Below, piece after piece: positions 1 to 12,237 of a stretch of 12,237 nt of DNA; position 1 is the stretch's first letter; every line of letters begins with the position of its first letter. This DNA comes from a bacterium (GTDB lineage Bacteria > Electryoneota > Tariuqbacteria > Tariuqbacterales > JADHWD01): assembly GCA_016783645.1 (NCBI GenBank), contig JADHWD010000082.1:1-12237 (forward strand), read 5' to 3'. The position numbers were made by a program, and so were the translations under genes. The notes beneath the pieces were generated by a model. It was not told the DNA's origin. It did not search any database and was given only the letters and a program-made list of their open reading frames with translations.

Positions 1-60
1 TCGCCTTGCCGGAAATCCGCAAGGTGGGGGAAAAACCGATCCGCTGGACTCTATCTGAAA

Positions 61-100
61 GCATAGGTTCAATTTAAAATTTAAAATTAAGAATTTAAAA
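61..100. repeat. AT-rich tandem of ~8-bp aatttaaa units
   Basis: aatttaaaatttaaaattaagaatttaaaattatc. Preceded by a GC hairpin at 4-24 (ccttgccgg aaat ccgcaagg). Confidence 0.5.
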
Positions 101-140
101 TTATCATATTAAACATGGATACACAGGATATTCAGGATAT

Positions 141-218
141 TAGGGGGCTGACACATAGGTCTTCCCCTACATCTCAGATTATTCGGTTTTCTGTAGGGGC
201 GAACCCATGTGTTCGCCC
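141..218. repeat. REP doublet: degenerate REP-A (141-170, tagggggctgacacataggtcttcccctac) plus REP-B (193-218, GTAGGGGCGAACccatgtGTTCGCCC)
   Basis: Palindromes seen directly; the same units recur at 509-576, 851-921 and 1582-1652. Confidence 0.8.
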
Positions 219-273
219 TGTTGAATATTTTTCAATATATAATATTTATCACGATTATGGTGTAATTTTAACA

Positions 274-300
274 AGGGCATACACTTTGGTCTGCCCCTAC
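274..300. repeat. Degenerate REP-A half copy (agggcatacactttggtctgcccctac) overlapping the RAYT stop codon
   Basis: Right arm gtctgcccctac is intact, left arm is decayed. The RAYT TAG stop lies inside cccCTAc. Confidence 0.6.
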
Positions 301-842
301 AATAATGGATTTTCAGGATCTTTATACCAATTTATAGGATTATTAATAATGTATTCTCTTATTTTGTATAATTCGCTTTTATTTCGAACAATATGTTCAT
401 AGTAATTACGCTGCCATATTTTTCCTTGAAATGGCGGCCAATTGTTCATTTTAACATTCCTAATATATTCGTTCGTCGTCATAGTTTTAAACCACTGAAT
501 TACCTTATGTAGGGGCGAACCCATGTGTTCGCCCTCTTTCGTTTTATTAGGACAGACACATAGGTCTGCCCCTGCAATAACGATTATTCCATGAATATGA
601 TTTGGCATTAATATAAATTCATCATGTTCCATATTGGGGAATTTCTCAGAAATCTTAATCCACCATTTTTCCACCATCTCACTTATTGGAGTGTAATTAT
701 TTTCACCGCCGGATATCTCGCAAAGTATACATTCACGATTATTAGTGCAAATAGTGACAAAATATGCGCCAGGTTGGGAATAATCGTAATTATTCAGTCT
801 TAAGGACTTTCTGCGAGGTATATCAAGTTGATATTTCATCAT
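297..842 (-). CDS. REP-associated tyrosine transposase (RAYT / TnpA_REP, IS200-like HuH Y1 transposase)
   Basis: Motifs in the ORF-track translation: GAYFVTICT (IS200-like N-terminal strand), HuH motif LMPNHIHGII, and the RAYT signature WQRNYYEHIVRN followed by EYIINNP. Flanked on both sides by GTAG-headed palindromes. The ORF-track start at 863 is a GTG inside a REP; ATG ATG at 842/839 is the more likely start and has no SD. Confidence 0.8.
   Translation of the reverse strand: MMKYQLDIPRRKSLRLNNYDYSQPGAYFVTICTNNRECILCEISGGENNYTPISEMVEKWWIKISEKFPNMEHDEFILMPNHIHGIIVIAGADLCVCPNKTKEGEHMGSPLHKVIQWFKTMTTNEYIRNVKMNNWPPFQGKIWQRNYYEHIVRNKSELYKIREYIINNPINWYKDPENPLL
509..576. repeat. REP-B plus REP-A doublet located INSIDE the RAYT coding sequence, reading frame preserved
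   Basis: 509-534 GTAGGGGCGAACCCATGTGTTCGCCC and 548-576 taggacagacacataggtctgcccctgca. The RAYT ORF runs through them as the peptide ...IAGADLCVCPNKTKEGEHMGSPL... between the HuH and WQRNYYEH motifs. Confidence 0.75.
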
Positions 843-850
843 TATATATA

Positions 851-921
851 TAGGGGCAGACACATAGGTCTGCCCCTACAAATGATTATCACCTTGTAGG
901 GGCGAACCCATGTGTTCGCCC
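851..921. repeat. BIME: REP-A (851-879, perfect 29-bp palindrome TAGGGGCAGACacataGGTCTGCCCCTAC) - 16-bp spacer - REP-B (896-921)
   Basis: Seen directly. Positions 858-921 are identical over 64 bp to 1589-1652. Confidence 0.85.
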
Positions 922-929
922 GGATTACT

Positions 930-1520
930 TTAAAATTTAAAGCCTACTTGGATTCCTTGCTTTGAAATATCCGGTGCTATATAAAAACCATATTGGTCCA
1001 TATATTTTGATTTTTTCACCGAAGATACGGCAAAATATGTGAAAAAAAATGTTTGGATAGTCCCTGATATTATCAACAATTCTTTTCCACCACTTAGGTA
1101 ATCCTTTTCCGGATCTTTCTCGACTCTCAACATAGTTATAAATGGACCTAAAACCGGAATAACAGTGGTCTCTAACATTTCATCACCCATTGCTGCTGCG
1201 CCAAATATTGTTAATCCCCAGCTACTTAAAAATCCAATCTTGCCAATATTAATGTTAGTATCAAAACTGGATAATGATTTTCTTTGAATTTCTGATTTTT
1301 TTATCAATAAAACCTCGCTCATCTGAAATACAAAAAGATTTCCGTCTCGTGTCTCAATTTTTAACAAACTGTCAGGGTACAACTCTGTTATTGTACCTTT
1401 AATTATACTGCCATTCTTAAGATGGACTTCATCGATTTTTATTGCCTGTGAATAAACCGATGAAAAATTTGCCACAAATATCAAAATGGCAATTACGATG
1501 AAAGCGATAGACCTGAACAT
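930..1520 (-). CDS. hypothetical membrane/secreted protein (~196 aa) with N-terminal signal/anchor and internal hydrophobic segments
   Basis: ORF 930..1526. The ORF-track start is GTG; ATG at 1520 is preceded by AGGAG (taAGGAGtgattATG). N-terminus MFRSIAFIVIAILIFVANFSSVYSQ, a soluble region, then hydrophobic stretches IGFLSSWGLTIFGAAAMG and LLIISGTIQTFFFTYFAV. No recognisable family. Confidence 0.6.
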   Translation of the reverse strand: MFRSIAFIVIAILIFVANFSSVYSQAIKIDEVHLKNGSIIKGTITELYPDSLLKIETRDGNLFVFQMSEVLLIKKSEIQRKSLSSFDTNINIGKIGFLSSWGLTIFGAAAMGDEMLETTVIPVLGPFITMLRVEKDPEKDYLSGGKELLIISGTIQTFFFTYFAVSSVKKSKYMDQYGFYIAPDISKQGIQVGFKF

Positions 1521-1581
1521 AATCACTCCTTATAATTAAATAACAGTGAAATAGATTTAAAATGTATAAAACTAATCATAA

Positions 1582-1652
1582 GAGGGGTAGACACATAGGT
1601 CTGCCCCTACAAATGATTATCACCTTGTAGGGGCGAACCCATGTGTTCGCCC
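1582..1652. repeat. BIME: REP-A variant (1582-1610) - spacer - REP-B (1627-1652); 64-bp identical copy of 858-921
   Basis: Seen directly. Lies between the 198-aa gene start and the flotillin stop. Confidence 0.85.
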
Positions 1653-1674
1653 AGAGAAATATTATCATACGAAC

Positions 1675-3132
1675 TTATTTCTCTTCCTTCTTCCCCATCT
1701 TTTGGAAGATTTTTTTCAAATCGGCGCCAGTCAGAGCTTCGACCACTTCGGGCAGCTGAGCGAGAATCTTCGCCACCTGTCCGGTCAGTTTAGAAGCGCC
1801 GTCGGCGCCGTCGCCTATCATGATAATTTTGTCAACCTGTGATAACGGTTCGGACACCGCCCTAGCCAACTCCGGCATCTTATCGATCAGCATCTGATAG
1901 ACCGCCGCTTCGTTATAAGCGGAGAAGGATTCAGCTTTCTTTCTCATCACTTCGGCTTCAGCGTCGCCTTGCGCTTTCTTGACTTCCGCGTCTGCCAGTC
2001 CTAACTGGCGGTTATAGGCGATGCGGGATATGCCGCGCTGTTTGGCGACTTCGATTTCCGCCATACCTTCAGATTTGATGGCTTCGGCTTTACCCGCCGC
2101 TTCCAGTTCTTTCCGCATTTTTTCCGCGGCGGCTTCGGTCTCAATCTGATATCTATGGGCGTCAGCTCCTTTCTTGATGGAGGCTTCGAGTTCCTTCTCT
2201 TTGCGCCGGATTTCCGCGTCTTCCAGCTTGATCGCTTCTTCTTTCTCCAGCAGTTTGGTGGTGCATTCCGCCTTTTTCAGTTCTCTTGTCAGTTCAGACC
2301 GTTCCAACTCATAGGCTGAATCGGATTTGGCTTTTTCGCGGTTGACATCGGTTTGATACTGCATCCGCTTCAGTTCATAATCGCGGTTGGCGGCGGCGAT
2401 TTCGGTTTCAGCGATGAATTTCGCCACATCGCCGTCTTTGCGGGCTTGAGCGGCTTTGATAGTGGTCTCCATCGCCGCTTCCGCTTCCGCCACTTCCGCA
2501 TCGCGTTTCACTTCCGCTATGCGGGGTTTGCCTAACGCCTGCAAATAGCCCTGCTTGTCCGACATATCCTTCATAGTGAAAGATATGACTGTCAAGCCCA
2601 TATTAGCGAAATCGCCGGCGGCTTCATCCTTGACCATAGCGTTGAACTTGTCCCGGGTCTTGTAAAGTTCTTCGACAGTCATTCGTCCTAACGCCGCCCG
2701 CATGTAACCTTCCAATATCTGCTCGGAAATCTCCTTGATGCCTTTTTCGCCGGAGGACAGGAACTGTTCGGCGGCTTGGCGGATGGAATAGTCATCACTG
2801 GCAATTTTGACTTGAGAAGTCGCTTCGGCGATGATATGAACGCCTTGAGCGGTAAGCACTTCCGGCGTTTTGATGCTGACAGTATAGACTTCCAAAGGCA
2901 GTATCCTGAAGGTCTCGCGCAGGGGATTGATAAAAGCGCCGCCGCCGACCACATAACGGTAGCCTATTTCTTTAACCGTCCCGTCAGGGTCGGTGACCTT
3001 ATGTTTCTTGCCGCCGGATATTATTAATACCTCGTTGGGCCCCACCTTCTTGTACATGAAGGCGAGGGCTAAATAATACAGCGCCGCAACGGCTGCCGCG
3101 GCGGCTATCAATATGATGATTATGGTGGACAT
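1675..3132 (-). CDS. flotillin / SPFH (band-7) family protein
   Basis: N-terminal TM helix MSTIIIILIAAAAAVAALYYLALAF, an SPFH-like core, then a long Ala/Glu-rich coiled-coil region (AEVKRDAEVAEAEAAMETTIKAAQARKD... EAEVMRKKAESFSAYNEAA) typical of bacterial flotillins. Start AGAGGAGcaaaATG at 3132. Confidence 0.85.
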   Translation of the reverse strand: MSTIIIILIAAAAAVAALYYLALAFMYKKVGPNEVLIISGGKKHKVTDPDGTVKEIGYRYVVGGGAFINPLRETFRILPLEVYTVSIKTPEVLTAQGVHIIAEATSQVKIASDDYSIRQAAEQFLSSGEKGIKEISEQILEGYMRAALGRMTVEELYKTRDKFNAMVKDEAAGDFANMGLTVISFTMKDMSDKQGYLQALGKPRIAEVKRDAEVAEAEAAMETTIKAAQARKDGDVAKFIAETEIAAANRDYELKRMQYQTDVNREKAKSDSAYELERSELTRELKKAECTTKLLEKEEAIKLEDAEIRRKEKELEASIKKGADAHRYQIETEAAAEKMRKELEAAGKAEAIKSEGMAEIEVAKQRGISRIAYNRQLGLADAEVKKAQGDAEAEVMRKKAESFSAYNEAAVYQMLIDKMPELARAVSEPLSQVDKIIMIGDGADGASKLTGQVAKILAQLPEVVEALTGADLKKIFQKMGKKEEK

Positions 3133-3148
3133 TTTGCTCCTCTATAAT

Positions 3149-3177
3149 CCTATACATGAATGTGATGTGTTATTCAA
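3149..3177 (-). promoter_or_regulatory. candidate sigma70-like promoter for flotillin (TTGAAT-17-TATAGG on minus strand)
   Basis: Minus-strand read ttgtcttTTGAATaacacatcacattcatgTATAGGattatagaggagcaaaATG. The -10 is weak; inference only. Confidence 0.2.
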
Positions 3178-3441
3178 AAGACAATCGGGTGGAAATTGTC
3201 CGTTGAAAAAATTTTATTTAAGAAATATACGAAAAATATTTCAGATATTCAAAGAATTTGCGAATTATTTCACGGAATTGTTAGGGGCGGAAAGCTGAGG
3301 ATTAGGGAGTACAGGAGGGCATTACTATTCCGGAAAAATTTACTTAAATAATAGGTTTATAAAAGTTCAATAGTTTGATTATGTTGTATTATAATAAATT
3401 AAACACAATAATCTACAAGTCCTTCAACAAATATCCGCATG

Positions 3442-4527
3442 TCACTTTGATCTATGGTATGCTGGCACGGAAATGATCTTTAAAGCTGTCGGCGGATCAT
3501 AAGATGGTTTATATACATTAACAATATCATGTTTGATGTATGATGGCATTCCGTAAGCGGGATCAGTGGAAATTGCGCTCATCATGCCGCAGGATTTGAT
3601 TTTCCAAAAACTTACATCACCGGAGTTCCAGCGTAAAAGATTATCCGGATATTCATTGTAGACCGCTCGCATAGCCTCACCGATATTGCTCCAGGTTTCA
3701 TCTATCAAATCATTAGGTATGAAATAATCTTCATCCTCCGACCAATCCCGGTTTATCGCCCAATTGTATTCATCGGACATGTAATAGTCCTTGAGGAACA
3801 GATCATGGTAGCCAAGCCATTCGATGCGCATATACATCATCTTACAATAGGGCCATTCAATGCCATTGGAGAATAATTCAGATAAGTCCACAAAATTATA
3901 GACTCCCGGAGCACCTACATCAACCGGATAGACAAATACTTCATCCTCAAAAATATTATCGGTGGAATGGAGAAATACTTTCATAATTGGATCTGTTTCT
4001 TCGCCCACCAGATTATATCCCATATTGAAAACCAGATGAAGATCCACCGGTTGTCCAGTCAAGCTGGTCGAACCGTATCCGAAAATATAATGCTCCTGAA
4101 CTATTTCTCCTTCATCATGCACTCCCGCCAACGCATAACGGCAATAGCCCCATGGCTCATAATCGCCAATATAACCAGTCCCGACCGGACCAAGATATGT
4201 ATTCCAGAAAAATTGATTGAATTGCTGTCCGTCGACATAGTTGCCAAGGTTCACGCCGTTTGGGCCCTCTTCCAAATTGTTATACAGAGTCTGCAATGCG
4301 TCGAAGCCCGAATTTCTAAAATTGTCGTAATGTTGCTCCCAAGCAAAATTACAGTAGGCGGCGTTTAAGCCCAGACTGTCCATTTCCGGGAATTCATCAA
4401 TCGGAAAACTCAATACCGCTTTGTGAATTTCGCCTTCCTCTAAAGCGAAGCATAAAGATAAAACCGCCAGGGTGGAAACTAACGCCTTCAACATGGTGAA
4501 GACCCAAGATGATTTTGTTGTAAGCAT
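3442..4527 (-). CDS. hypothetical secreted protein, acidic and aromatic-rich (W/Y/F), 4 Cys in the mature part; no recognisable family
   Basis: ORF 3442..4539. ATG at 4527 is preceded by GGAGG with a 5-nt spacer (tATGGAGGcagaaATG). Signal-peptide-like N-terminus MLTTKSSWVFTMLKALVSTLAVLSLCFA. No lipobox and no T9SS C-terminal domain. Confidence 0.6.
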   Translation of the reverse strand: MLTTKSSWVFTMLKALVSTLAVLSLCFALEEGEIHKAVLSFPIDEFPEMDSLGLNAAYCNFAWEQHYDNFRNSGFDALQTLYNNLEEGPNGVNLGNYVDGQQFNQFFWNTYLGPVGTGYIGDYEPWGYCRYALAGVHDEGEIVQEHYIFGYGSTSLTGQPVDLHLVFNMGYNLVGEETDPIMKVFLHSTDNIFEDEVFVYPVDVGAPGVYNFVDLSELFSNGIEWPYCKMMYMRIEWLGYHDLFLKDYYMSDEYNWAINRDWSEDEDYFIPNDLIDETWSNIGEAMRAVYNEYPDNLLRWNSGDVSFWKIKSCGMMSAISTDPAYGMPSYIKHDIVNVYKPSYDPPTALKIISVPAYHRSK

Positions 4528-4640
4528 TTCTGCCTCCATAAGAATAAGTTAATAGATATTTGGTAGTAAAATATTCACTGGCTATTTTGGCTATTATGGC
4601 TATAAAATTCAAAACTCGAAATCCGAAACGCAATTAACCA

Positions 4641-4680
4641 CGAATAAACACGAATGTTCTCGAATATGCACGAAAAAGAA
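4641..4680 (+). repeat. Four 10-bp phased repeats, CGAAnnnnnn x 4
   Basis: cgaataaaca cgaatgttct cgaatatgca cgaaaaagaa. Two more CGAA are at 4617 and 4624. The array runs straight into unit U2. Confidence 0.6.
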
Positions 4681-4761
4681 TTCACAAGCTATTAAAGCTA
4701 TGAAAGCTAAGAAATCCGAAATTCGACACAATGATTTAACCCGGATATACAGGATTAAATC

Positions 4762-4793
4762 AAGGCAAAAGTAAAAAGTCAAAAGGCAAAAGT
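4762..4793 (+). repeat. Direct repeat AAGGCAAAAGT x 2 (21-bp period), with AAAAGT x 3
   Basis: aaggcaaaagtaaaaagtcaaaaggcaaaagtg, seen directly. Confidence 0.6.
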
Positions 4794-5068
4794 GAAACAT
4801 TCACAGCAGATGAAGCAGATTAAGCAGATAATATTCACTGGTAATAATGGTAATTATGGTAATAATAGCTTTAATTGCTTTAATAGCTTGTGAATATTTA
4901 TCACCATTATCACCATCATCACCAGTGAATCTCTTCATCGTTTAATTCGTTGTGAATCTTTTTCCGCGTTCCGAGCTAAATAGCGATAATAGCCATAATA
5001 GCCAGTGAATCTCTTTCATACTTTTTTCATTCATTATTTACTATTCTAAATTCACTATTCTCAATTAT

Positions 5069-6610
5069 TTATTTCATCAACACTACCTTCTTCACCGTCG
5101 ACTGTCCACTGTCTACTGTCAACCGAATGAAATATATCCCGCTTGACAAATCCGACCCATCGAAAACCGCTTCATGATACCCAAGCGACAGGAGACCAGT
5201 GACGAGTGTCTGCACTTCCCGCCCCTGAAGGTCATATACCGTCAATTCCACATCGCTGTCAGCTGTGAGCTGAAAGCTGATAGCTATTTTCGCGTTGAAG
5301 GGATTGGGATAAGCCTTGATTAGAGCGAAATCGGAAGGCGGACTCGAAGGAATCCGCTCTTCCACTCCCACCGCCCAGGCGCTGTCCCCGGCGAAGATGT
5401 TCACATAGCCGTAGGGGATAGCCGCTCCCCACATGATATCGTCGATACCGTCATTGTTCACATCGCCGCATTCACCGATTACACTGCCGATGTTCAGACC
5501 GCCCGTGAATAAAACATCGCAGATGCCATCCATCCAAGGACTGCCGAAATAGATATAAACCGCGCCCATACTGCCGAAAGCATTGAAATTTCCAACGATT
5601 ATATCGCCATAACCATCTCCATTGCAGTCTCCGGTCGATGATATTTCGCTCGGAGTGCCGGCGTAGGAAGATATTGACAGTTCCATATCGCATTGGTTGT
5701 CCATATTGACGCCGCCGAAATAGACCATTACTTTATAAATTTCATATCCCACGAATTCGCAATCAATCGTGACGAAATCATCAAAATCGTCACCGTTCAA
5801 ATCTTCCACGATTGCGAATTTATATTCAGTGGCTATAGTCAAATCCGGTATAGTGTCCGGTTCCGCCCCGCCGAAGAAGATGTATAGGTTATCAGGGGGA
5901 TAATAACCCTCCTTGACTGCGATGTCGTCATAGCCGTCCCCGTTCAAATCGCCGCCGCCGATGAGTTGAAAGCCAAGCATATCATACTGATCAACGCCAT
6001 TAACAATCCAATCGGGGATAGTGTCCATTTCTGCGGCGCCATAGTAAATCAAAATTCTGCCCCGGGTATCATTGTATAGTGTTTGCGACACCAGCAAGTC
6101 ATCATAACCATTGTTGTTAAAATCACCGGCAGTAGATATTCTCCCAAAAGTATTAGGATAGTTTCCAGAATTTATTACTAAATCCGGAATAGTGTCAGGT
6201 TCAACACCTATGTTATAAATCAAAATCTGACTTTGTTCTGAGCCTAACCAAGCGACAATCCCTAATTCATCCAACCCATCACCATCTATATCTCCAATAT
6301 TCTTCAATGTGTATGAACTCAAGGTGCCTGTAGAGTATGTCAATTCAAAATCATGGATGGAATCCATGGGGCTTCCACCATGATAAATTAAGACAGATCT
6401 GAAATAACTGCTTTCGCCTACGCCGATGGCAATATCGTCGTATCCATCGCCGTTTTGGTCGCCGATTCCGCAGACGGCTTGACCGAGGTACATGTGATCC
6501 GGCTGCCAGGACTCGGCGTGGAAGATCAACTGCGGGGGTTGGGAAAGGGCAGTCGAGATAACGGAGAGAAAAAGGCAGAAAGCTAAAATTAAGAATCTGT
6601 AAAAATTCAT
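5069..6610 (-). CDS. FG-GAP repeat (integrin-alpha-like beta-propeller) protein with T9SS C-terminal sorting domain (Por_Secre_tail type)
   Basis: Multiple GDxNGDGYDD(I/L) calcium-binding-like FG-GAP repeats. C-terminus KAYPNPFNAKIAISFQLTADSDVELTVYDLQGREVQTLV...GIYFIRLTVDSGQSTVKKVVLMK matches the T9SS C-terminal domain pattern. Signal peptide MNFYRFLILAFCLFLSVISTALSQ. The ORF-track start is GTG; ATG at 6610 is preceded by GGAGG with an 8-nt spacer. Confidence 0.8.
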   Translation of the reverse strand: MNFYRFLILAFCLFLSVISTALSQPPQLIFHAESWQPDHMYLGQAVCGIGDQNGDGYDDIAIGVGESSYFRSVLIYHGGSPMDSIHDFELTYSTGTLSSYTLKNIGDIDGDGLDELGIVAWLGSEQSQILIYNIGVEPDTIPDLVINSGNYPNTFGRISTAGDFNNNGYDDLLVSQTLYNDTRGRILIYYGAAEMDTIPDWIVNGVDQYDMLGFQLIGGGDLNGDGYDDIAVKEGYYPPDNLYIFFGGAEPDTIPDLTIATEYKFAIVEDLNGDDFDDFVTIDCEFVGYEIYKVMVYFGGVNMDNQCDMELSISSYAGTPSEISSTGDCNGDGYGDIIVGNFNAFGSMGAVYIYFGSPWMDGICDVLFTGGLNIGSVIGECGDVNNDGIDDIMWGAAIPYGYVNIFAGDSAWAVGVEERIPSSPPSDFALIKAYPNPFNAKIAISFQLTADSDVELTVYDLQGREVQTLVTGLLSLGYHEAVFDGSDLSSGIYFIRLTVDSGQSTVKKVVLMK

Positions 6611-6651
6611 GTTATGGACCTCCACACGGTGGTTTGAATGTTGTTGGAAGG

Positions 6652-6680
6652 AATATAAATAAATCTATTCAAAAAAGCAA
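6652..6680 (-). promoter_or_regulatory. candidate promoter for the FG-GAP/T9SS cargo gene (TTGCTT-17-TATATT on minus strand)
   Basis: Minus-strand read TTGCTTttttgaatagatttattTATATT, about 40 nt upstream of the start. Inference from consensus only. Confidence 0.25.
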
Positions 6681-6814
6681 GCTTTTTGTAAGATGTGCGT
6701 TTAATATATCCGGCGGGGATGCAGACTCTCGATCACCGCACTATCATCGATTTCCGCATGGTCAGATTCTATTCCGTCTACCGCCTGCGCGGGAATGACA
6801 AAATAGATACAGGT

Positions 6815-6873
6815 TTCATTCAATAATATTTTGGCGGGTTAAGAACCCGCCCTACAGCTATTTTCAGAATAAA
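6815..6873. repeat. Composite 58-bp repeat R1: ttcattcaataatatttt + hairpin GGCGGGTTaagAACCCGCC (minus-oriented REP, GTAGGGCGGG...) + tail CTACAGCTATTTTCAGAATAAA
   Basis: Near-identical direct copy at 7033-7090. Tail variants at 9168-9200 and 9418-9446. Confidence 0.8.
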
Positions 6874-6920
6874 CCCTCATGCCGATCAGTCGGCACAACT
6901 TAGCATGAAAATAGTTTCAA

Positions 6921-6945
6921 GGGCGACCGCAAGGGTCGCCCCTAC
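6921..6945 (-). repeat. REP-C (minus orientation: GTAGGGGCGACCcttgcGGTCGCCC)
   Basis: 8-bp stem gggcgacc/ggtcgccc plus a ccctac tail. Confidence 0.7.
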
Positions 6946-6960
6946 ACCACGACGCAATTA

Positions 6961-6988
6961 GTAGGGGCAAACGGCCGTTTGCCCCTAC
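6961..6988. repeat. REP-D: perfect 28-bp palindrome GTAGGGGCAAACGG|CCGTTTGCCCCTAC, flanked by a 7-bp direct repeat gcaatta
   Basis: gcaatta at 6954-6960 and 6990-6996; seen directly. Confidence 0.8.
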
Positions 6989-7011
6989 TGCAATTAGATG
7001 ATCATTTTTAG

Positions 7012-7032
7012 GAGCAGACCTTGCGTCTGCCC
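7012..7032. repeat. REP-A-like variant (gagcagaccttgcgtctgccc)
   Basis: Stem gcagac/gtctgc. Related to the tagGGGCAGAC...GTCTGCCCctac family. Confidence 0.5.
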
Positions 7033-7090
7033 TTCATTCAATATTATTTTGGCGGTTAAGAACCCGCCCTACAGCTATTTTCAGAATAAA
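7033..7090. repeat. Composite repeat R2, a direct copy of 6815-6873 with a 1-bp deletion in the hairpin
   Basis: ttcattcaatattattttggcggttaagaacccgccctacagctattttcagaataaa. Confidence 0.8.
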
Positions 7091-7119
7091 TTGATTTTCA
7101 GAGGCAGATTTATTATATT
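7091..7119 (+). promoter_or_regulatory. candidate promoter for the PEPCK gene (TTGATT-17-TATATT)
   Basis: TTGATTttcagaggcagatttatTATATT, about 40 nt upstream of GTG 7160. The SD GGGAG sits 8 nt before the start. Inference. Confidence 0.3.
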
Positions 7120-7159
7120 TAATGTTTAAATCATTTACCATCATTGGGAGACGACCACT

Positions 7160-9040
7160 GTGTCCAATATTTATGATGTCAAGGTTTACGCCCAGTTCAT
7201 AGATAACATGCGCGAAGCGCTGAAAACCTCTAAAACTATCAAGACTGTCAAGCTGGAAGATTTACGGAGAACAGCTTATAAATCCGGTCAGAGGACGATT
7301 TATGGTTCCTATGGATGGCGCAGCGCTGTATCTTCCCGGATAGCGCCTCGGACAGTCTACCTCGGCAGTGAATATGTGCAGTTACCTAAAATCACACCTG
7401 TGCAAAAACAGCTGATTCAGAATGCGCCCGAAGAATTGCATAAGGTTCTGCATCTTCTGCGAACTTTACCTTTCGTTCATATCCGGCGGCGCATGGGCGA
7501 CAATAAAGAATACAATCCTATCTGTAATCTTTACATGTCGATGGCAGATCCTAAAAACGCCCGGCTGGCTTTTATGTACGGCAGCACATTGGCGCCGGTT
7601 GACAAGAGTAAACCCGGTCCCGAATTTACTATGATTCATATTCCGGAGGAGCATGTGATCCGCCAGCAGGTGCTGGCGCTCCCGGAATACGGCGTCAATA
7701 TATGCCTCGGTTCCGATTATATGGGCGAAGATAAGAAAGGATTTTTGCGGCAGTCGATGTATAACGCTGACGAATTAGGGATGCTGGGACTGCACGCCGG
7801 CACTAAGATCGTCAAAGCGCTGGACGCCAGAACAGGGAAGTTGAAAACATATGGCATTTACTTATTCGGTCTGTCCGCCACCGGTAAATCAACTTGGTCT
7901 TGTCATCAATTGGGCATGGATTTCAATAAAGGCGAAGGCACTTGGGCATGCCAAGACGATATCGTATTTCTGAAACGCGACGGCGGGGCTTACGGCACGG
8001 AAACGGGGTTCTTCGTTAAAACCGATGTGGATGAGAAACTGCAGGAAGCGATGTACAACGCCCTCATCGATAGAACGGCTTTATACGAAAATGTGATGAT
8101 AGACAGCAATGGACGGCCTGATTTCCTGGATGAAAACCTTTGCGCCAACGGCAGGGCGGTCATCCGCAAAGATAAATTGAAAGTGAGACGGAAGGGCAGA
8201 TTAGTGAGTATCGAATCGCCGGATATCAATCTGCCCCCGGCGGAGGAACTCGACGGCATAGCTTTCGCCTTCATCACCCGCCGCAATACTATAATGCCTT
8301 TCGCGCAAAAACTGACGCCCGAAAAAGCGGTATTGGCATATCTCTGGGGCGAATCTTCCCATAGCTACGCTTCCCAGCCCGCTAAAGCCGGCGAATCGGT
8401 GAGAGTGGTAGGCACCGATCCCTTCATAGTAGGTTCACGCGCCCGCAAAGTCAACCGTTTCAAGAAGATAGTGATGGAATTAGTGGATAAATTACCCGGC
8501 AAAGTGGAATTCTTCCAGTACAACACCGGAGGTATGGGTGAAATCATCAGAGAAGAGATGGTGGACGGTGAAAAGAAAAAGATTATGGTACGCAAGACTG
8601 AGAGAGTGCCCATCAAGCTAATGGCGGCGCTGCAAAGAGGCGACCTGCGGGGAACAAATCATTACGAAATAGGTTCATTGAATAACGAAGCGGTGGTAGA
8701 AACCGAAGGTTTCGATCTCCGGCAATATGATATCAAGCAATATTATAGCCAGGAACAGATAGATTATTACCTTCAGGATCTGGTCGACGGCCGCCGCCGG
8801 CATACGGAAGAAATCGCTTCCGAAGGGCTCGATTCGGATATTCTAAAATGGGCGGGAAAAGCCTATGAAATAGCCCCTAAGGGGAAGTCTGCAAAAGTCA
8901 CCGTCCCGGAATCACCGGTTTTTGAAGAGAAGGATAAAGAACTGGAGAAAGCGGAAGAATATCCGGCTTCTTATATCGCAACACTTCCGGACACCGCTAA
9001 ATTACGGCCGCCGAGATTAATAGCGTCAAGATTCAGATAG
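7160..9040 (+). CDS. pckA: phosphoenolpyruvate carboxykinase (ATP), divergent form with C-terminal extension (626 aa)
   Basis: GTG start with GGGAG SD. Motifs recalled from E. coli PckA, by memory: YMGEDKKG (cf. YGGEMKKG), kinase-1a FGLSATGKST (cf. FGLSGTGKTT), QEAMYNALIDRTALYENV (cf. EIYNAIRRDALLENV), ENLCANGRAVI (cf. ENTRVSYPI), ITRRNTIMPF...AVLAYLWGES (cf. LTADAFGVLPP...QYHFLSGFT), YNTGGMG (cf. VNTGWNG). About 145 aa follow the NTG motif versus about 95 in E. coli. Confidence 0.75.
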   Translation: MSNIYDVKVYAQFIDNMREALKTSKTIKTVKLEDLRRTAYKSGQRTIYGSYGWRSAVSSRIAPRTVYLGSEYVQLPKITPVQKQLIQNAPEELHKVLHLLRTLPFVHIRRRMGDNKEYNPICNLYMSMADPKNARLAFMYGSTLAPVDKSKPGPEFTMIHIPEEHVIRQQVLALPEYGVNICLGSDYMGEDKKGFLRQSMYNADELGMLGLHAGTKIVKALDARTGKLKTYGIYLFGLSATGKSTWSCHQLGMDFNKGEGTWACQDDIVFLKRDGGAYGTETGFFVKTDVDEKLQEAMYNALIDRTALYENVMIDSNGRPDFLDENLCANGRAVIRKDKLKVRRKGRLVSIESPDINLPPAEELDGIAFAFITRRNTIMPFAQKLTPEKAVLAYLWGESSHSYASQPAKAGESVRVVGTDPFIVGSRARKVNRFKKIVMELVDKLPGKVEFFQYNTGGMGEIIREEMVDGEKKKIMVRKTERVPIKLMAALQRGDLRGTNHYEIGSLNNEAVVETEGFDLRQYDIKQYYSQEQIDYYLQDLVDGRRRHTEEIASEGLDSDILKWAGKAYEIAPKGKSAKVTVPESPVFEEKDKELEKAEEYPASYIATLPDTAKLRPPRLIASRFR

Positions 9041-9048
9041 ACGGAAGT

Positions 9049-9085
9049 TACAAGTAATAAGATACAAGTAACAAGTTGCAAGTCT
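9049..9085 (+). repeat. Simple heptad-like repeat (ACAAGTA / ACAAGTT / GCAAGTC) just after the pckA stop
   Basis: ttacaagtaataagatacaagtaacaagttgcaagtc. Confidence 0.5.
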
Positions 9086-9111
9086 CTTACTGAAGGGCGC
9101 TCTTATACTCG

Positions 9112-9133
9112 TTCCCATGCTCCTGCGTGGGAA
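9112..9133 (+). other. Conserved hairpin family H (TTCCCATGC tcct GCGTGGGAA) about 70 nt downstream of the pckA stop; no U-tract
   Basis: 9-bp stem with one G.U pair. A homologous hairpin at 11137-11158 sits downstream of the oxidase gene. Both are followed by ATGCA. Confidence 0.5.
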
Positions 9134-9144
9134 TGCAAACAAAT

Positions 9145-9200
9145 GGTGGGTAAAGAACCCACCCTGCTATTTCTAACAGCTGACGACTATTTTCAGATTA
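9145..9200. repeat. Composite repeat R3 (variant of R1/R2): hairpin GGTGGGTaaagaACCCACC + ctgctatttctaacagctgacgactattttcagatta
   Basis: Same architecture and tail motif as 6833-6873. Confidence 0.6.
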
Positions 9201-9211
9201 ATGATGCATTT

Positions 9212-9278
9212 GTAGGGGCGAAGCATTTTGGGAAGATGATGTAAATGCGGCGATGATAGAAAAATGCTTCGCCCCTAC
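9212..9278. repeat. REP-E / MITE-like 67-bp element: 18-bp inverted arms GTAGGGGCGAAGCATTTT ... AAAATGCTTCGCCCCTAC around a 31-nt loop
   Basis: Perfect 18-bp arms. The loop, gggaagATGATgtaaatgcggcgATGATaga, is itself a small inverted repeat. The same family occurs nested at 11170-11385. Confidence 0.85.
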
Positions 9279-9289
9279 AGAATTGGCAG

Positions 9290-9310
9290 CCCGGTTTCTC
9301 CGAAACCGGG
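9290..9310. repeat. Hairpin CCCGGTTTC tcc GAAACCGGG (9-bp stem)
   Basis: Seen directly. Confidence 0.6.
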
Positions 9311-9317
9311 TAATGCC

Positions 9318-9354
9318 GGCAGGTCACATCCGCCTGCGGCGTGCAAGACCTGCC
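9318..9354. repeat. Hairpin GGCAGGTC ...21 nt... GACCTGCC, followed by A-run aaaataaaaaa
   Basis: 8-bp GC-rich stem. The loop contains ccgc ctg cgg. Not a canonical intrinsic terminator on either strand. Confidence 0.5.
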
Positions 9355-9374
9355 AAAATAAAAAAGCTGCCAGG

Positions 9375-9397
9375 ATTCCCTACTGCGCTAGGGGAAT
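9375..9397. repeat. REP-like palindrome attccctactgcgctaggggaat (minus-oriented GTAGGG head)
   Basis: Imperfect 8-bp stem. Shares GGGGAATGACA with 6791-6801. Confidence 0.4.
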
Positions 9398-9417
9398 GAC
9401 ACGAGCGGAGCGGATTA

Positions 9418-9446
9418 CTAACAGATGACAGCTATTCTCAAGATAA
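9418..9446 (+). repeat. Fourth copy of tail motif CTAACAGaTGACaGCTATTcTCAaGATAA
   Basis: Compare 9174-9200 ctaacagctgacgactattttcagatta and 6855-6873 acagctattttcagaataaa. Confidence 0.5.
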
Positions 9447-9486
9447 TTAAATCAGTTAAATAACACCTGATATAAAGGACTGAATA

Positions 9487-9747
9487 ATGCCGACATATGA
9501 TTATAAATGTAATGTATGCAAATATCGATTTGAAGAATTTCAGAGTATATTGTCCAAACCGATAACTATATGTCCAAGATGCGGAGGTAAAGTAGAGCGT
9601 CTTATCAGCGGCGGCGCGGGATTGATCTTCAAAGGCGCCGGATTTTATGAGACGGATTACAAGCGAAAGAGTAACGGCAACGGCGGCGGATCATATAAAA
9701 GCGCTCCGGTAACAGCCAAGACCGAATCTTCCACCGAATCCAAATAG
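9487..9747 (+). CDS. FmdB-family zinc-ribbon protein (CxxC...CxxC putative regulatory protein)
   Basis: MPTYDYKCNVCKYRFEEF...ICPRCGG matches the FmdB zinc-ribbon pattern. SD AAAGGA 7 nt upstream. Gly/Ser-rich C-terminal tail. Stop is 3 nt before the next ATG. Confidence 0.7.
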   Translation: MPTYDYKCNVCKYRFEEFQSILSKPITICPRCGGKVERLISGGAGLIFKGAGFYETDYKRKSNGNGGGSYKSAPVTAKTESSTESK

Positions 9748-9749
9748 TC

Positions 9750-11126
9750 ATGGCGGATTTCGCCAAAATCAGTAAAAAGTTGAAGCGGGTTTTGGGAAAG
9801 AGTAGAGTTTTATTCCAGCCCGAAGAGAAACTCGCTTATTCATTTGACGCCGGCTCCCGCCGCAGTATCCCTTCGATTGTCCTCTTCCCCGAAACCGCCA
9901 GAGAGGTGATTGAAATTGTCGAAACCGCCTCCGAATTTCATTTACCCATTGTTCCCCGGGGCGCCGGCACCGGTATGACCGGCGGATCCATTCCCATCAA
10001 TGACGCTGTCGCTCTCTCTTTTGAAAGGATGAATCGTATCCTCAAGATTGATGCGTCAAACCGGATAGCTATAGTCGAGCCCGGGGTGGTGACGGTGAGC
10101 CTGCAGGATGAAGCTATAAAATTCAATTTATATTATCCCCCGGATCCGGCAAGTTTCAAGATGTCCACTATCGGCGGAAATGTGGCGGAGAATTCCGGCG
10201 GACTAAGATGCCTGAAATACGGAGTCACCGCCGATTATCTCATCGGAACGGAATTCATCACTATGACCGGTGAAGTTATCAAGACGGGTTATTTCGATGA
10301 TTACCGAGCGCCCTATGATTTGACACAGCTTTTATGCGGCAGTGAAGGGACATTAGGCATCATTGTGAAAATCGCATTAAGATTGATAGATAAACCTCAT
10401 GATTTTTTAACTTTATCAGCGGAATTTCCCAATCCGGTTTCCGCCGCAGGATCGGTCACCGATATACTCAATTCCGGATTCACCCCTTCAGTGTTAGAAT
10501 TCATGGATAAGACTGCGATTGAAGCGGTCAGCCGGCAGGAAAGATTCGATTTGAACGAAGAAACCGCCGCATTACTAATTATCGAATTCGATGATGATGC
10601 TGAAAAAAACAATTTTTACGCTGAAACAACGATAAGTATCTGCCGGAAAAACGGCGCATTGAGCGTAAAATCCGCCAAAGATGCAGAAGCGCGGGAAAAC
10701 CTGTGGAAATTCCGCCGCAGCACATCATCGGCGCTCACCCGCTTGAACACCTGCAAAATCAACGAGGATATCGCAGTACCCCGCAGTAAAATCGCTGAAA
10801 TAGTTGAATTCGTGGAAAATATGGCGGAGGAGATCGATATTCTGATTCCTATTTTCGGACATGCGGGTGACGGTAATATTCACATCAATTTCATATTCGA
10901 TAAAAATGATACCGGACAATCGGAGCGCGCGGAAGCAGGTGTGGACCGCCTTTTCACAAAAGTGGTAGAGCTTGGCGGAAGTATCTCCGGCGAACACGGA
11001 ATCGGATTAGCGAAACAGAAATATCTGCCTAAACAGCTGGAGGCGGGTAATGTAGCGATGCAGAAACAATTGAAGGCGGTGTTCGATCCGCAAAACCTGT
11101 TGAACCCGGGGAAGATATTTGTATGA
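9750..11126 (+). CDS. FAD-binding oxidoreductase, GlcD / D-lactate dehydrogenase family (FAD-linked oxidase)
   Basis: N-terminal FAD-binding PCMH-type pattern (PIVPRGAGTGMTGGSIP, RMNRILKID, VEPGV). C-terminal FAD-oxidase domain with a HAGDGNIH-type motif (GHAGDGNIHINF) and GSISGEHGIG. Likely an operon with the upstream FmdB gene. Confidence 0.75.
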   Translation: MADFAKISKKLKRVLGKSRVLFQPEEKLAYSFDAGSRRSIPSIVLFPETAREVIEIVETASEFHLPIVPRGAGTGMTGGSIPINDAVALSFERMNRILKIDASNRIAIVEPGVVTVSLQDEAIKFNLYYPPDPASFKMSTIGGNVAENSGGLRCLKYGVTADYLIGTEFITMTGEVIKTGYFDDYRAPYDLTQLLCGSEGTLGIIVKIALRLIDKPHDFLTLSAEFPNPVSAAGSVTDILNSGFTPSVLEFMDKTAIEAVSRQERFDLNEETAALLIIEFDDDAEKNNFYAETTISICRKNGALSVKSAKDAEARENLWKFRRSTSSALTRLNTCKINEDIAVPRSKIAEIVEFVENMAEEIDILIPIFGHAGDGNIHINFIFDKNDTGQSERAEAGVDRLFTKVVELGGSISGEHGIGLAKQKYLPKQLEAGNVAMQKQLKAVFDPQNLLNPGKIFV

Positions 11127-11136
11127 TATTTACACT

Positions 11137-11158
11137 CGTTCCCACGCTTTTGCGTGGG
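11137..11158 (+). other. Conserved hairpin family H (CGTTCCCACGC tttt GCGTGGG) 11 nt after the oxidase stop; no U-tract
   Basis: Homologous to 9112-9133 (actcgttcccaYgc...gcgtggg.atgca). Confidence 0.5.
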
Positions 11159-11169
11159 TATGCATAATA

Positions 11170-11385
11170 GTAGGGGCGAAGCATTTTTCTGTTATGATGC
11201 ATTTATTTACACTATATAGCCTCTTGCAAAAGTATGAAAACACATCTGGTAAGGGCGAAGCATTTTCACCATCATATTCAAATATTTCATCATTTTCCTG
11301 AAAATGCTTCGCCCCTACAGATACAGGATTACCCTTTGAGGATTTTTGCAAGTAACTCTATATACAATAAATGCTTCGCCCCTAC
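11170..11385. repeat. Nested REP-E composite palindrome (~216 bp): outer arms 11170-11188 / 11369-11385, inner element 11249-11318, extra inverted pair cttgcaaaagta 11223-11234 / tacttgcaaa 11347-11356
   Basis: Arms GTAGGGGCGAAGCATTTTT, GTAAGGGCGAAGCATTTT, AAAATGCTTCGCCCCTAC, AAATGCTTCGCCCCTAC. The inner loop caccATCATattcaaatatttcATCATtttcc is the reverse complement of the 9212-9278 element loop. Confidence 0.8.
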
Positions 11386-11412
11386 AAGACCACTAATCAT
11401 AACAATCATTTA

Positions 11413-12213
11413 ATGAACACTCTCCTGCAAACGGCTGTGAATGCCGCCCGCATCGGCGGAGATATCATTATGCGTCATTACTATAATAATAATGTGAAAA
11501 AATTGACGCATAAAAAGCCCAGCGATTATGTTACCGAAGTGGATCGGGAATCACAGGACGCTATTGTCGAGTATATTCTTAAACGGTTTCCCCATCATGC
11601 GATTTTAGCCGAAGAGGAAGGCGGCGGGAAAGAAGGAGAAGAATGCCGCTGGATAATTGATCCGCTCGATGGAACTACAAATTTCATCCACCATTTCCCC
11701 GTATTCGCAGTTTCAGTGGCGGTTGAAAGACTGGATGATTCGCCCCGGGATGTGAGTTCTATCGAGGCGGGGGCAGTATTGAATCCGGTGAGCGGCGAGT
11801 TATTCAGCGCTCAAAGCGGCGGGGGGGCGTTTCTTAATGGAAAGTCTATAAAAGTGAGCGGACGAAGCAAGATAGAAGATTGTTTGATTGCCACCGGCTT
11901 CCCTTTCAGGAATAAGGATTATTTAGAGGAATTTCTGACTATCTTCAAGCGGATGTTCAACGCTGTGAGCGGAATACGGCGGGCAGGCGCGGCCGCTATT
12001 GATCTATGCTGGGTGGCTTCAGGCGCGCTTGACGGATTCTGGGAACAGGGTCTATCTCCTTGGGATGTAGCGGCGGGCAGTTTGATAGTGAAAGAAGCGG
12101 GAGGGACGCTGTCTGATTTTCAAGGAGGAAGCGGGTACATTTGGAACCGAGAAATCATAGCCGCCGCCCCGGGAATTCATCAAATGATGCTGAATCTTAT
12201 CTGCGGGCGATAA
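11413..12213 (+). CDS. suhB: inositol monophosphatase family protein (SuhB-like)
   Basis: Signature WIIDPLDGTTNFIHHFP plus ILAEEEGG... and WDVAAGSLIVKEAGG. The ORF-track start at 11371 lies inside a REP arm; ATG at 11413 (MNTLLQTAVNAARIGG) is preferred and has no obvious SD. Confidence 0.8.
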   Translation: MNTLLQTAVNAARIGGDIIMRHYYNNNVKKLTHKKPSDYVTEVDRESQDAIVEYILKRFPHHAILAEEEGGGKEGEECRWIIDPLDGTTNFIHHFPVFAVSVAVERLDDSPRDVSSIEAGAVLNPVSGELFSAQSGGGAFLNGKSIKVSGRSKIEDCLIATGFPFRNKDYLEEFLTIFKRMFNAVSGIRRAGAAAIDLCWVASGALDGFWEQGLSPWDVAAGSLIVKEAGGTLSDFQGGSGYIWNREIIAAAPGIHQMMLNLICGR

Positions 12214-12226
12214 TCTTCATTTTTTT
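12197..12226 (+). terminator. weak candidate intrinsic terminator after the IMPase gene (ttatc tgcgggc gataa ... ttttttt)
   Basis: 5-bp AT-rich stem, 6-nt gap, then T7. Marginal. Confidence 0.15.
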
Positions 12227-12237
12227 ATATAAAATTC

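Follow-up and report, generated by a model that had tools for sequence, protein, structure and literature searches.

Does a repetitive extragenic palindromic sequence (REP) that lies within the gene of a REP-associated tyrosine transposase (RAYT, or TnpA_REP) mark an accident in that one copy, or is it a native part of the gene? The question is raised by contig JADHWD010000082.1 of assembly GCA_016783645.1, from a bacterium of the GTDB lineage Electryoneota, Tariuqbacteria, Tariuqbacterales, JADHWD01, of which we analysed positions 1 to 12,237 (the window). Near its start, the window carries a RAYT gene with two REPs, here REP1 and REP2, in frame between the HuH and WQRNYYEH motifs. The original prediction took the pair for a one-off insertion of a bacterial interspersed mosaic element (BIME) into this copy, leaving a transposase that either tolerates a REP-derived peptide loop or has been inactivated. 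We instead consider it probable, at roughly 85%, that the RAYT is an intact member of TnpA_REP subclass 2.4, and that the in-frame pair of cognate REP hairpins, situated in the loop region between β3 (the HuH strand) and αC, is ancestral and has been kept as a genuine RAYT substrate.

The RAYT gene and its internal REP pair

The gene, annotated merely as a ‘hypothetical protein’, had been read as open across both REPs, and direct reading bears this out: the open reading frame (ORF) 297-863 on the minus strand is open throughout and translates as ...NHIHGIIVIAGADLCVCPNKTKEGEHMGSPLHKVIQWFK...WQRNYYEH...YIINNP, the protein running in the order ...MPNHIHGIIVIAGADLCVCPNKTKEGEHMGSPLHKVIQWFKTMTTNEYIRNVK...WQRNYYEHIVRN...REYIINNP... 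(Table 1). The RAYT retains the HuH, WQ and EH residues, the Arg, the YIINNP Tyr and the Asn, and alignment to E. coli TnpA_REP provides counterparts for W94, Q95, E100, H101 and R104, which contact GTAG, and for Y115 and N119. The catalytic Tyr had been placed within WQRNYYEH; it is the Tyr of YIINNP, which aligns with E. coli YIYINP containing Y115 (PMC6006769 Table 1). Twelve residues follow YIINNP, i.e. there is no C-terminal extension domain, and the TAG stop codon (297-299) doubles as the last three bases of the downstream REP's GTAG head. Judged by its residues, the RAYT is apparently an intact Y1 enzyme of the GTAG-REP type, with nothing to suggest inactivation.

Counted from the first His of HuH, the Trp of WQ lies 61 aa away, compared with 35 aa in E. 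coli TnpA_REP (H59 by alignment, W94 per PMC6006769), and the Tyr of YIINNP lies 82 aa away. The enlargement that had been proposed, from a count of 57 aa and an E. coli spacing of 35-40 aa, is real; the E. coli figure was right, although the count was four residues short. The RAYT has about 23-26 residues more than classical RAYTs, which agrees with the insert of about 20-25 aa estimated earlier, and 149 of its residues align over 126 positions of the REP_Tyr_transpos profile.

The B-type REP noted at 509-534 is an exact copy: REP2 is identical at 26/26 positions to three extragenic copies (193-218, 896-921 and 1627-1652), and its GTAG head at 509-512 is intact. The A-type variant is also present, with coordinates of 549-575 and not 548-576. 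REP1 has 2/26 mismatches to a consensus pattern that also detects the copy at 854-879, and it is degenerate, with two G.T wobbles in the stem and a GCAG head at a position that is GTAG in 42/46 aligned loci. In the S. maltophilia system, binding and cleavage have been measured for GTAG heads with single-base changes, including GCAG, and cleavage was reported to be severely reduced, most of all by changes at the last two positions (PMC8266576). GCAG leaves those two positions unaltered. In the window copy, REP1 looks like a decaying REP and REP2 is perfect.

The pair is inverted, contains one REP of each local subtype with the GTAG heads pointing outward, and accounts for ~21 residues of the protein, past the HuH strand and ahead of the helix that follows it. 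At 852-921 and 1583-1652, the extragenic doublets instead have their heads inward; the upstream one ends 12 nt short of the ATG. On the sense strand the locus is laid out as [B<-][A->] ATG...HuH [A'->] 14 nt [<-B] ...WQ...Y... stop/[A->] [<-B] [A->], and a degenerate 26-nt REP pattern detected 9 copies in the 12.2-kb window, compared with 0 in 200 shuffles. Folded as single-stranded DNA (ssDNA), the sense strand of the internal pair forms two hairpins (-17.5 kcal/mol, z -4.7); folded as RNA, it forms a single long REP1:REP2 hairpin (-38.8 kcal/mol, z -6.5).

Table 1 Coordinates of the RAYT gene, its motifs and the REPs in the window.
Feature	Position	Strand	Description
RAYT / TnpA_REP gene	297..839	-	180 aa from ATG at 839 (NCBI call, P0001)
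Alternative in-frame GTG start, upstream	863	-	gives ORF 297-863, 188 aa
HuH motif codons NHIH	591..602	-	read from sequence; both His ≥90% conserved in 113 homologs
WQRNYYEH codons	393..416	-	match W94, Q95, E100, H101 (GTAG-binding) of E. coli TnpA_REP by alignment (PMC6006769)
YIINNP codons (catalytic Tyr motif)	336..353	-	fits subclass 2.4 signature YIxNNP
Internal REP1	549..575	-	A type, GTAG strand is the sense strand; GCAGGGGCAGACCTATGTGTCTGTCCT; encodes AGADLCVCP
Spacer between REP1 and REP2	535..548	-	sense AATAAAACGAAAGA, 14 nt, residues NKTKE; length and sequence hypervariable in the family
Internal REP2	509..534	+	B type, GTAG strand is antisense to the gene; GTAGGGGCGAACCCATGTGTTCGCCC; sense strand encodes (E)GEHMGSPL(H)
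REP A form GTAGGGGCAGACCTATGTGTCTGCCC	heads at 170, 300, 575, 879, 1610	-	
REP B form GTAGGGGCGAACCCATGTGTTCGCCC	starts at 193, 509, 896, 1627	+	four copies, all identical
Upstream extragenic REP doublet	852..921		A 854-879 (GTAG strand -), B 896-921 (GTAG strand +); heads face each other, 16-nt linker
Downstream extragenic REP cluster	145..300		A 275-300 (-), B 193-218 (+), A 145-170 (-)
Second head-to-head A/B doublet	1583..1655		97% identical over 73 nt to 852-924
28-nt double-foot REP	6961-6988		GTAGGGGCAAACGGCCGTTTGCCCCTAC
Long double-foot hairpins	9212-9278 and 11249-11318		GTAGGGGCGAAGCATTTT...AAAATGCTTCGCCCCTAC

An AlphaFold2 model of the protein, built with an alignment of 113 sequences, has a mean predicted local distance difference test score (pLDDT) of 81.9 and places the HuH strand at residues 81-88 and the αC helix (LHKVIQWFK...) at 110-132. 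The intervening residues 89-109 are modelled as coil, and pLDDT falls below 50 for residues 91-105. A Foldseek search of the PDB returned E. coli TnpA_REP bound to a REP hairpin (4er8_A) as first match (E 3.9e-7), with all of the top 30 being TnpA_REP or IS200/IS605 transposases, and the profile-to-4ER8 sequence match had an E value of 5e-5. The REP-encoded peptide is thus predicted to be a tolerated, floppy surface loop. Between the two outcomes that had been offered for the enzyme, tolerance fits this low-confidence loop, while inactivation is at odds with the intact catalytic and GTAG-binding residues and with the same layout in the nearest relative, L081.

Family-wide occurrence and constraint on the DNA

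A protein search with the RAYT scored about 8000 relatives, and alignments were made of 30 and of 113 of the best matches. In addition, with each species represented by a single genome, relatives were detected in at least 577 genomes, from which the 80 loci with the best tblastn matches were kept. Across the 113 homologs, the residues of VGADLCVCP and GEHxGSPL are mostly ≥90% conserved and the stretch between them is hypervariable. Of 106 scorable proteins, 99 have a REP1-type peptide, which in 68 of them begins exactly 5 residues past the second His, and 96 have a REP2-type peptide, which in 94 of them ends exactly 4 residues ahead of QWFK. Such shared junctions are incompatible with a one-off insertion in this copy. 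The stretch from HuH to QWFK spans 28-90 aa in the 113 sequences, with a median of 35, so the 31 aa of the window are near the minimum: the family alignment, a check proposed together with the original prediction, went against it, showing a segment that is native to the clade and of normal length.

From HuH to WQ the frame is open in 80/80 loci, over distances of 52-144 aa. Some relatives contain extra tandem copies, such as the repeated VGADLRVCPI units of P0024 and the multiple copies of L029, and up to 5 REP1-type peptides occur within one protein. Among the 80 loci are some from metagenome-assembled genomes (MAGs) labelled as Chloroflexota, Nitrospirae, Deltaproteobacteria, Bacteroidetes, Planctomycetes lineages (Phycisphaerae, Pirellulales) and Verrucomicrobiia, with further labels of Actinomycetota, Clostridia, Gammaproteobacteria and several candidate phyla.

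The nearest relative, L081, is syntenic (it shares the same 198-aa neighbour gene), has the same REP arrangement and shows 81% protein identity. Aligned as DNA (L081:1044-1586 to 297-839), the two genes have a mean identity of 87%, gap columns included. The flanking B-type REPs of L081 are identical to those of the window, its REP2 has one G.T wobble, its spacer has diverged, and 21 nt are inserted between its upstream REP and the start codon. In this comparison the internal REPs are not better conserved than the rest of the gene: they differ at 5/27 and 2/26 positions, compared with ~87% identity overall.

The features of the window RAYT match those of a described group. In the text of Quentin, Siguier, Chandler & Fichant (2018, BMC Genomics 19:475, PMC6006769), in-frame REPs between HuH and Tyr are a unique feature of TnpA_REP subclass 2.4, equated there with RAYT Group 4 of Bertels, Gallie & Rainey 2017. 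The same text gives the subclass the signature NH[IFV]H, WQ and YIxNNP, a median length of 194 aa, REPs ‘inserted in tnpAREP’, and a median HuH-Y distance of 88 aa, compared with 58-67 in most subclasses, owing to an insertion between β3 and αC; it further describes canonical long GT[AG]G REPs within +/-1000 nt, their stems based on three G-C pairs, and genomic ‘double-foot’ REPs, together with an 8-aa insertion at the end of αB, the lack of a conserved C-terminal extension domain and a distribution across many phyla. The window RAYT has NHIH, WQ and YIINNP, 180 aa, an 82-aa HuH-Tyr distance, no C-terminal extension, in-frame REPs in an enlarged and variable β3-αC region, long GTAG REPs nearby, double-foot REPs further along (Table 1) and relatives patchily spread over many phyla. 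Nothing essential sets it apart, the window copy differing in its near-minimal loop with one REP per type and a 6-aa spacer, and in the GCAG head of REP1. What had been considered an unusual outcome is therefore, in that text, the published and defining oddity of the subclass, known since 2018, and the window gene is another example of it.

The constraint in this segment is visible at the level of codons. We counted codons in 37 genes with both motifs, taking the rest of the same genes as background. GGG, GAC, GTC, GGC, CAC and CTA were each used in 37/37 genes at their REP positions (background 26%, 30%, 33%, 23%, 36% and 6% of the synonymous codons, respectively), GGT and CCC each in 36/37 (background 26% for both) and GTA in 33/37 (background 15% of Val codons). 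The Pro codon immediately outside the REP1 stem is unconstrained (CCT 18, CCC 8, CCA 5, CCG 5). The residue past ...PL varies (H/P/Q/R), yet its codon nearly always begins with C, completing CTAC.

Standard pairs make up 98.5% of stem cells in the ungapped alignment of 46 REP1 sequences and 98.1% in that of 50 REP2 sequences; shifting the 3' side by 1-3 columns lowers the figure to 29-60%. The pairs themselves change in a compensatory manner: REP1 pair 9-22 is AU in 20 sequences, GC in 8 and CG in 3, and REP2 pair 5-16 is AU in 21, CG in 13 and GC in 4. In REP1, an Ala codon ending in A, G or C (GCA/GCG/GCC) goes together with TGC, CGC or GGC, respectively, and this compensation turns the ‘conserved’ second Cys into Arg or Gly. 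For REP2, the amino-acid pairs E-S, A-A, G-P and T-V track GAAC/GTTC, GCAC/GTGC, GGAC/GTCC and ACAC/GTGT. It is the DNA hairpin and its GTAG/CTAC foot that are conserved, not the peptide, which is a by-product, as follows from the frozen synonymous codons, the stem changes that dictate residues and the relatives with a REP in another frame. On whether the hairpin acts as mRNA or as ssDNA of the GTAG strand, the few non-Watson-Crick cells give G.T versus A.C mispairs on the sense strand of 5 versus 1 in REP1 and 2 versus 3 in REP2.

We also considered the long REP1:REP2 hairpin as the selected structure and rejected it: the two REPs differ in stem subtype in most loci, being alike only in L036, L039, L062 and L057, and the covariation points to two hairpins that form separately, even though the window sequence folded as RNA prefers the long form.

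The internal REPs resemble those of their own locus. Over 17 variable positions, in loci with canonical REPs outside the gene, the mean distance to local extragenic REPs of the same orientation was 1.7 for REP1 and 1.0 for REP2, compared with 2.8 and 3.2 to the extragenic REPs of other loci (permuted) and 4.4 and 4.8 to local REPs of the opposite orientation; the observed same-orientation distances were reached in 0/2000 permutations. The pair is dimorphic like the Y and Z REPs of E. coli BIMEs, and the dimorphism is common to internal and external copies. In 27 loci the pair is intact and both flanks extend for at least 2.5 kb; of these loci, 19 have no canonical REP nearby and 10 have no GTAGGGG[CT] outside the gene.

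Ten loci (L001, L003, L009, L011, L023, L025, L044, L046, L054 and L071) have a perfect internal pair with no GTAGGGG[CT] within 2.5-3 kb on either side, and are not classical REP-flanked ‘REPtrons’.

Probable origin and possible role of the internal pair

On the reading that we favour, the pair would have been acquired once, at a permissive loop in the ancestor of the subclass, and retained since then as a real RAYT substrate, whether because selection acts on it directly or because exchange with the genomic REP pool keeps it homogenised. The in-frame copy-number variants of relatives may have arisen by slippage or through the action of the RAYT, and the window would hold a pair at minimal size, with REP1 starting to decay. 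Several observations weigh against this account. The 80-locus sample is biased to the best tblastn matches, so intact genes are over-represented in it. Internal REPs have decayed beside intact flanking REPs in L020, L051, L053 and L055, so maintenance is not universal. In L060 (1877-2395; GQTHRSAPT) and L064 (3001-3558; RQTCRSAPT) the second REP is in another frame and does not encode GEHxGSPL, which challenges a single acquisition and indicates that the REP has been replaced or re-phased at least occasionally. The head of REP1 is GTTG in L081 and GCAG in the window, which indicates that its GTAG was lost twice independently in a small lineage. The RAYT also matches profiles poorly, with 21.4 bits to Pfam PF01797 Y1_Tnp (threshold 23; residues 118-175 only, the C-terminal half) and 52 bits to NCBIfam NF047646 REP_Tyr_transpos (cutoff 80), for which the REP-split domain would account in subclass 2.4-type RAYTs generally. 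Finally, placement in subclass 2.4 relies on matching motif signatures and features rather than on a tree with reference sequences.

These poor matches, together with the mutated head of REP1, are what a recent BIME insertion that silently inactivated this copy would have in its favour. We give that explanation almost no weight and rejected it: the feature is found family-wide at the same junctions, the catalytic and GTAG-binding residues are all in place, the frame is open here and in 80/80 relatives, and the core folds confidently in the AlphaFold2 model. Selection on the amino acids, e.g. for a metal site of the form Cys-x-Cys...His with the palindromic DNA as a secondary effect, is scarcely more credible. 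VGADLCVCP and GEHxGSPL do resemble conserved motifs in alignments, but codon choice is frozen far past any need of the protein, some members have no REP1 or have a REP in another frame, the second Cys and the four REP2 residue pairs follow the stem, and the region has pLDDT below 50; the last two points led us to discard the metal-binding peptide. Recurrent, independent insertion of REPs into a permissive hot spot, in place of a single ancestral acquisition, is unlikely, though it has somewhat more to recommend it: copy number varies up to the five REP1-type peptides mentioned above, alternative frames occur in L060 and L064, and internal types agree with local extragenic types. It does not readily accommodate the codon-exact junctions of most members, the constant orientation (REP1 always forward, REP2 always reverse) or the many loci that lack nearby donor REPs.

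We wondered whether the pair might be a selected cis-acting element rather than a passenger, i.e. the substrate of the RAYT hard-wired in its own gene. In one version it would limit RAYT expression as a self-limiting switch, through the long mRNA hairpin of REP1 and REP2 or through RAYT binding to a GTAG hairpin exposed on the non-template strand; in another it would be a built-in seed copy, carried along whenever the gene is transferred horizontally and giving rise to the REP population of each new host. We regard this as a tentative possibility, and a doubtful one. It would fit the frozen synonymous sites and compensated stem changes across many bacterial lineages, the near-identity of REP sequences across many named lineages, the stability of the RNA fold of the pair, and the intact pairs at loci without canonical REPs (19/27) or any GTAGGGG[CT] (10/27) outside the gene. 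L074 (Candidatus Magnetocorallium; 2756-4185) is also in its favour: a 190-nt unit of REP, ~130-nt spacer and inverted REP occurs once in frame in the RAYT gene and three times outside, the copies are homologous through much of the spacer, and the outside copy at 3648-3875 keeps a flank, AATATTGTGCAATG, that resembles the IVQW codons beside the internal REP2, which implies copying from the gene to the outside, or else a partial gene duplication. As a general signal, however, coding-derived flanks are not seen beside extragenic REPs, the best identity being 6.7 of 16 compared with 6.0 for shuffled flanks; L064, L074 and L024 alone stand out, and the 9-10/16 matches of the window are unconvincing in AT-rich DNA. 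Decayed internal REPs coexisting with intact flanking ones and the loss of the REP1 GTAG in both the window and L081 further argue against such an element, and REPs beyond the examined flanks could still feed gene conversion.

E. coli TnpA_REP (YafM; PDB 4ER8; subclass 2.2, Group 2) has the same HuH/Tyr Y1 fold and GTAG-contact residues with counterparts in the window RAYT, and its gene is likewise flanked by dimorphic REPs in BIME-like alternating orientation. It differs in its shorter HuH-WQ spacing, in having no REP within the gene, in its C-terminal extension, in its longer and bulged REPs and in its protein sequence (~19% identity). The IS200/IS605 TnpA proteins (IS608, ISDra2) share the single-strand HuH/Tyr chemistry and fold and recognise a hairpin plus a 5' guide tetranucleotide, but there the gene is carried by a mobile element with the hairpins at its ends, whereas the window gene is single, stands among housekeeping genes and has hairpins inside its ORF as well. 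That REPs insert into coding DNA, as was concluded earlier, holds for this ORF and is not new: in-frame palindromic repeats are documented in other coding genes, namely the Rickettsia palindromic elements (RPEs) and the GTAG/CGTC REPs of DNA-repair genes (Di Nocera et al. 2013, PMC3733652). In these cases, too, palindrome dimers add 20-30 residues in frame that are tolerated, presumably in loops; they are, however, sporadic and species-specific, at varying sites in unrelated host genes, whereas the host gene here is the cognate transposase and the site is fixed across the subclass and many bacterial lineages.

Surrounding sequence and significance

Outside the RAYT locus, the window (930-12213) is ordinary chromosomal DNA, encoding an SPFH/flotillin protein, an FG-GAP protein with a type IX secretion system (T9SS) C-terminal sorting domain, a protein resembling phosphoenolpyruvate carboxykinase (PEPCK), a flavin adenine dinucleotide (FAD)-linked oxidase and an inositol monophosphatase. 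The T9SS sorting domain suggests the Fibrobacteres-Chlorobi-Bacteroidetes (FCB) group. The plus-strand ORF 115-402, of 95 aa, is spurious and arises from reading through REPs (...RFSVGANPCVRP...); it is of the type that seeds ‘hypothetical proteins’ in databases.

Other GTAG-headed palindromes crowd the intergenic regions 6815-7090, 9100-9280 and 11130-11390; among the intergenic GTAG-headed set are GGCGGGTTAAGAACCCGCCCTAC, with two copies within a 44-nt direct repeat, and GTAGGGGCGACCCTTGCGGTCGCCC. A palindrome without GTAG, CGTTCCCAyGC..GCGTGGGwATGCA, occurs at 9110-9137 and 11140-11167. The intergenic region 4565-5015 is of another kind: it contains at least 7 units, in both orientations, of ATTCAC + N + three tandem 9-mers (e.g. 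ATTCACTGGTAATAATGGTAATTATGGTAATAA at 4833-4865), the 9-mer varying between units and being threefold within each, with no Rfam match. No Rfam family reaches its gathering threshold anywhere in the window.

What is added here to the description of subclass 2.4 is the constraint at the nucleotide level, the co-variation of internal and local REPs, and the prediction of a low-confidence loop. We came across neither codon-level covariation nor a match between internal and local REPs in the text and supplement legends of the 2018 paper (PMC6006769), and our literature searches found no later paper on internal REPs. For protein databases, the finding means that REP-encoded peptides such as VGADLCVCP and GEHxGSPL, and spurious ORFs such as VGANPCVRP, are a source of pollution.

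If the pair does act in cis, this would explain why the REPs of subclass 2.4 are near-identical across many bacterial lineages, why perfect pairs exist without any other REP within several kb, and why complementarity within the stems determines which amino acids the loop contains. In this family a coding sequence plainly yields to the demands of a DNA hairpin, and the hairpins evolve together with the REPs of the genome; because the coding sequence is subordinate in this way, a cis function of the pair is directly testable by synonymous recoding.

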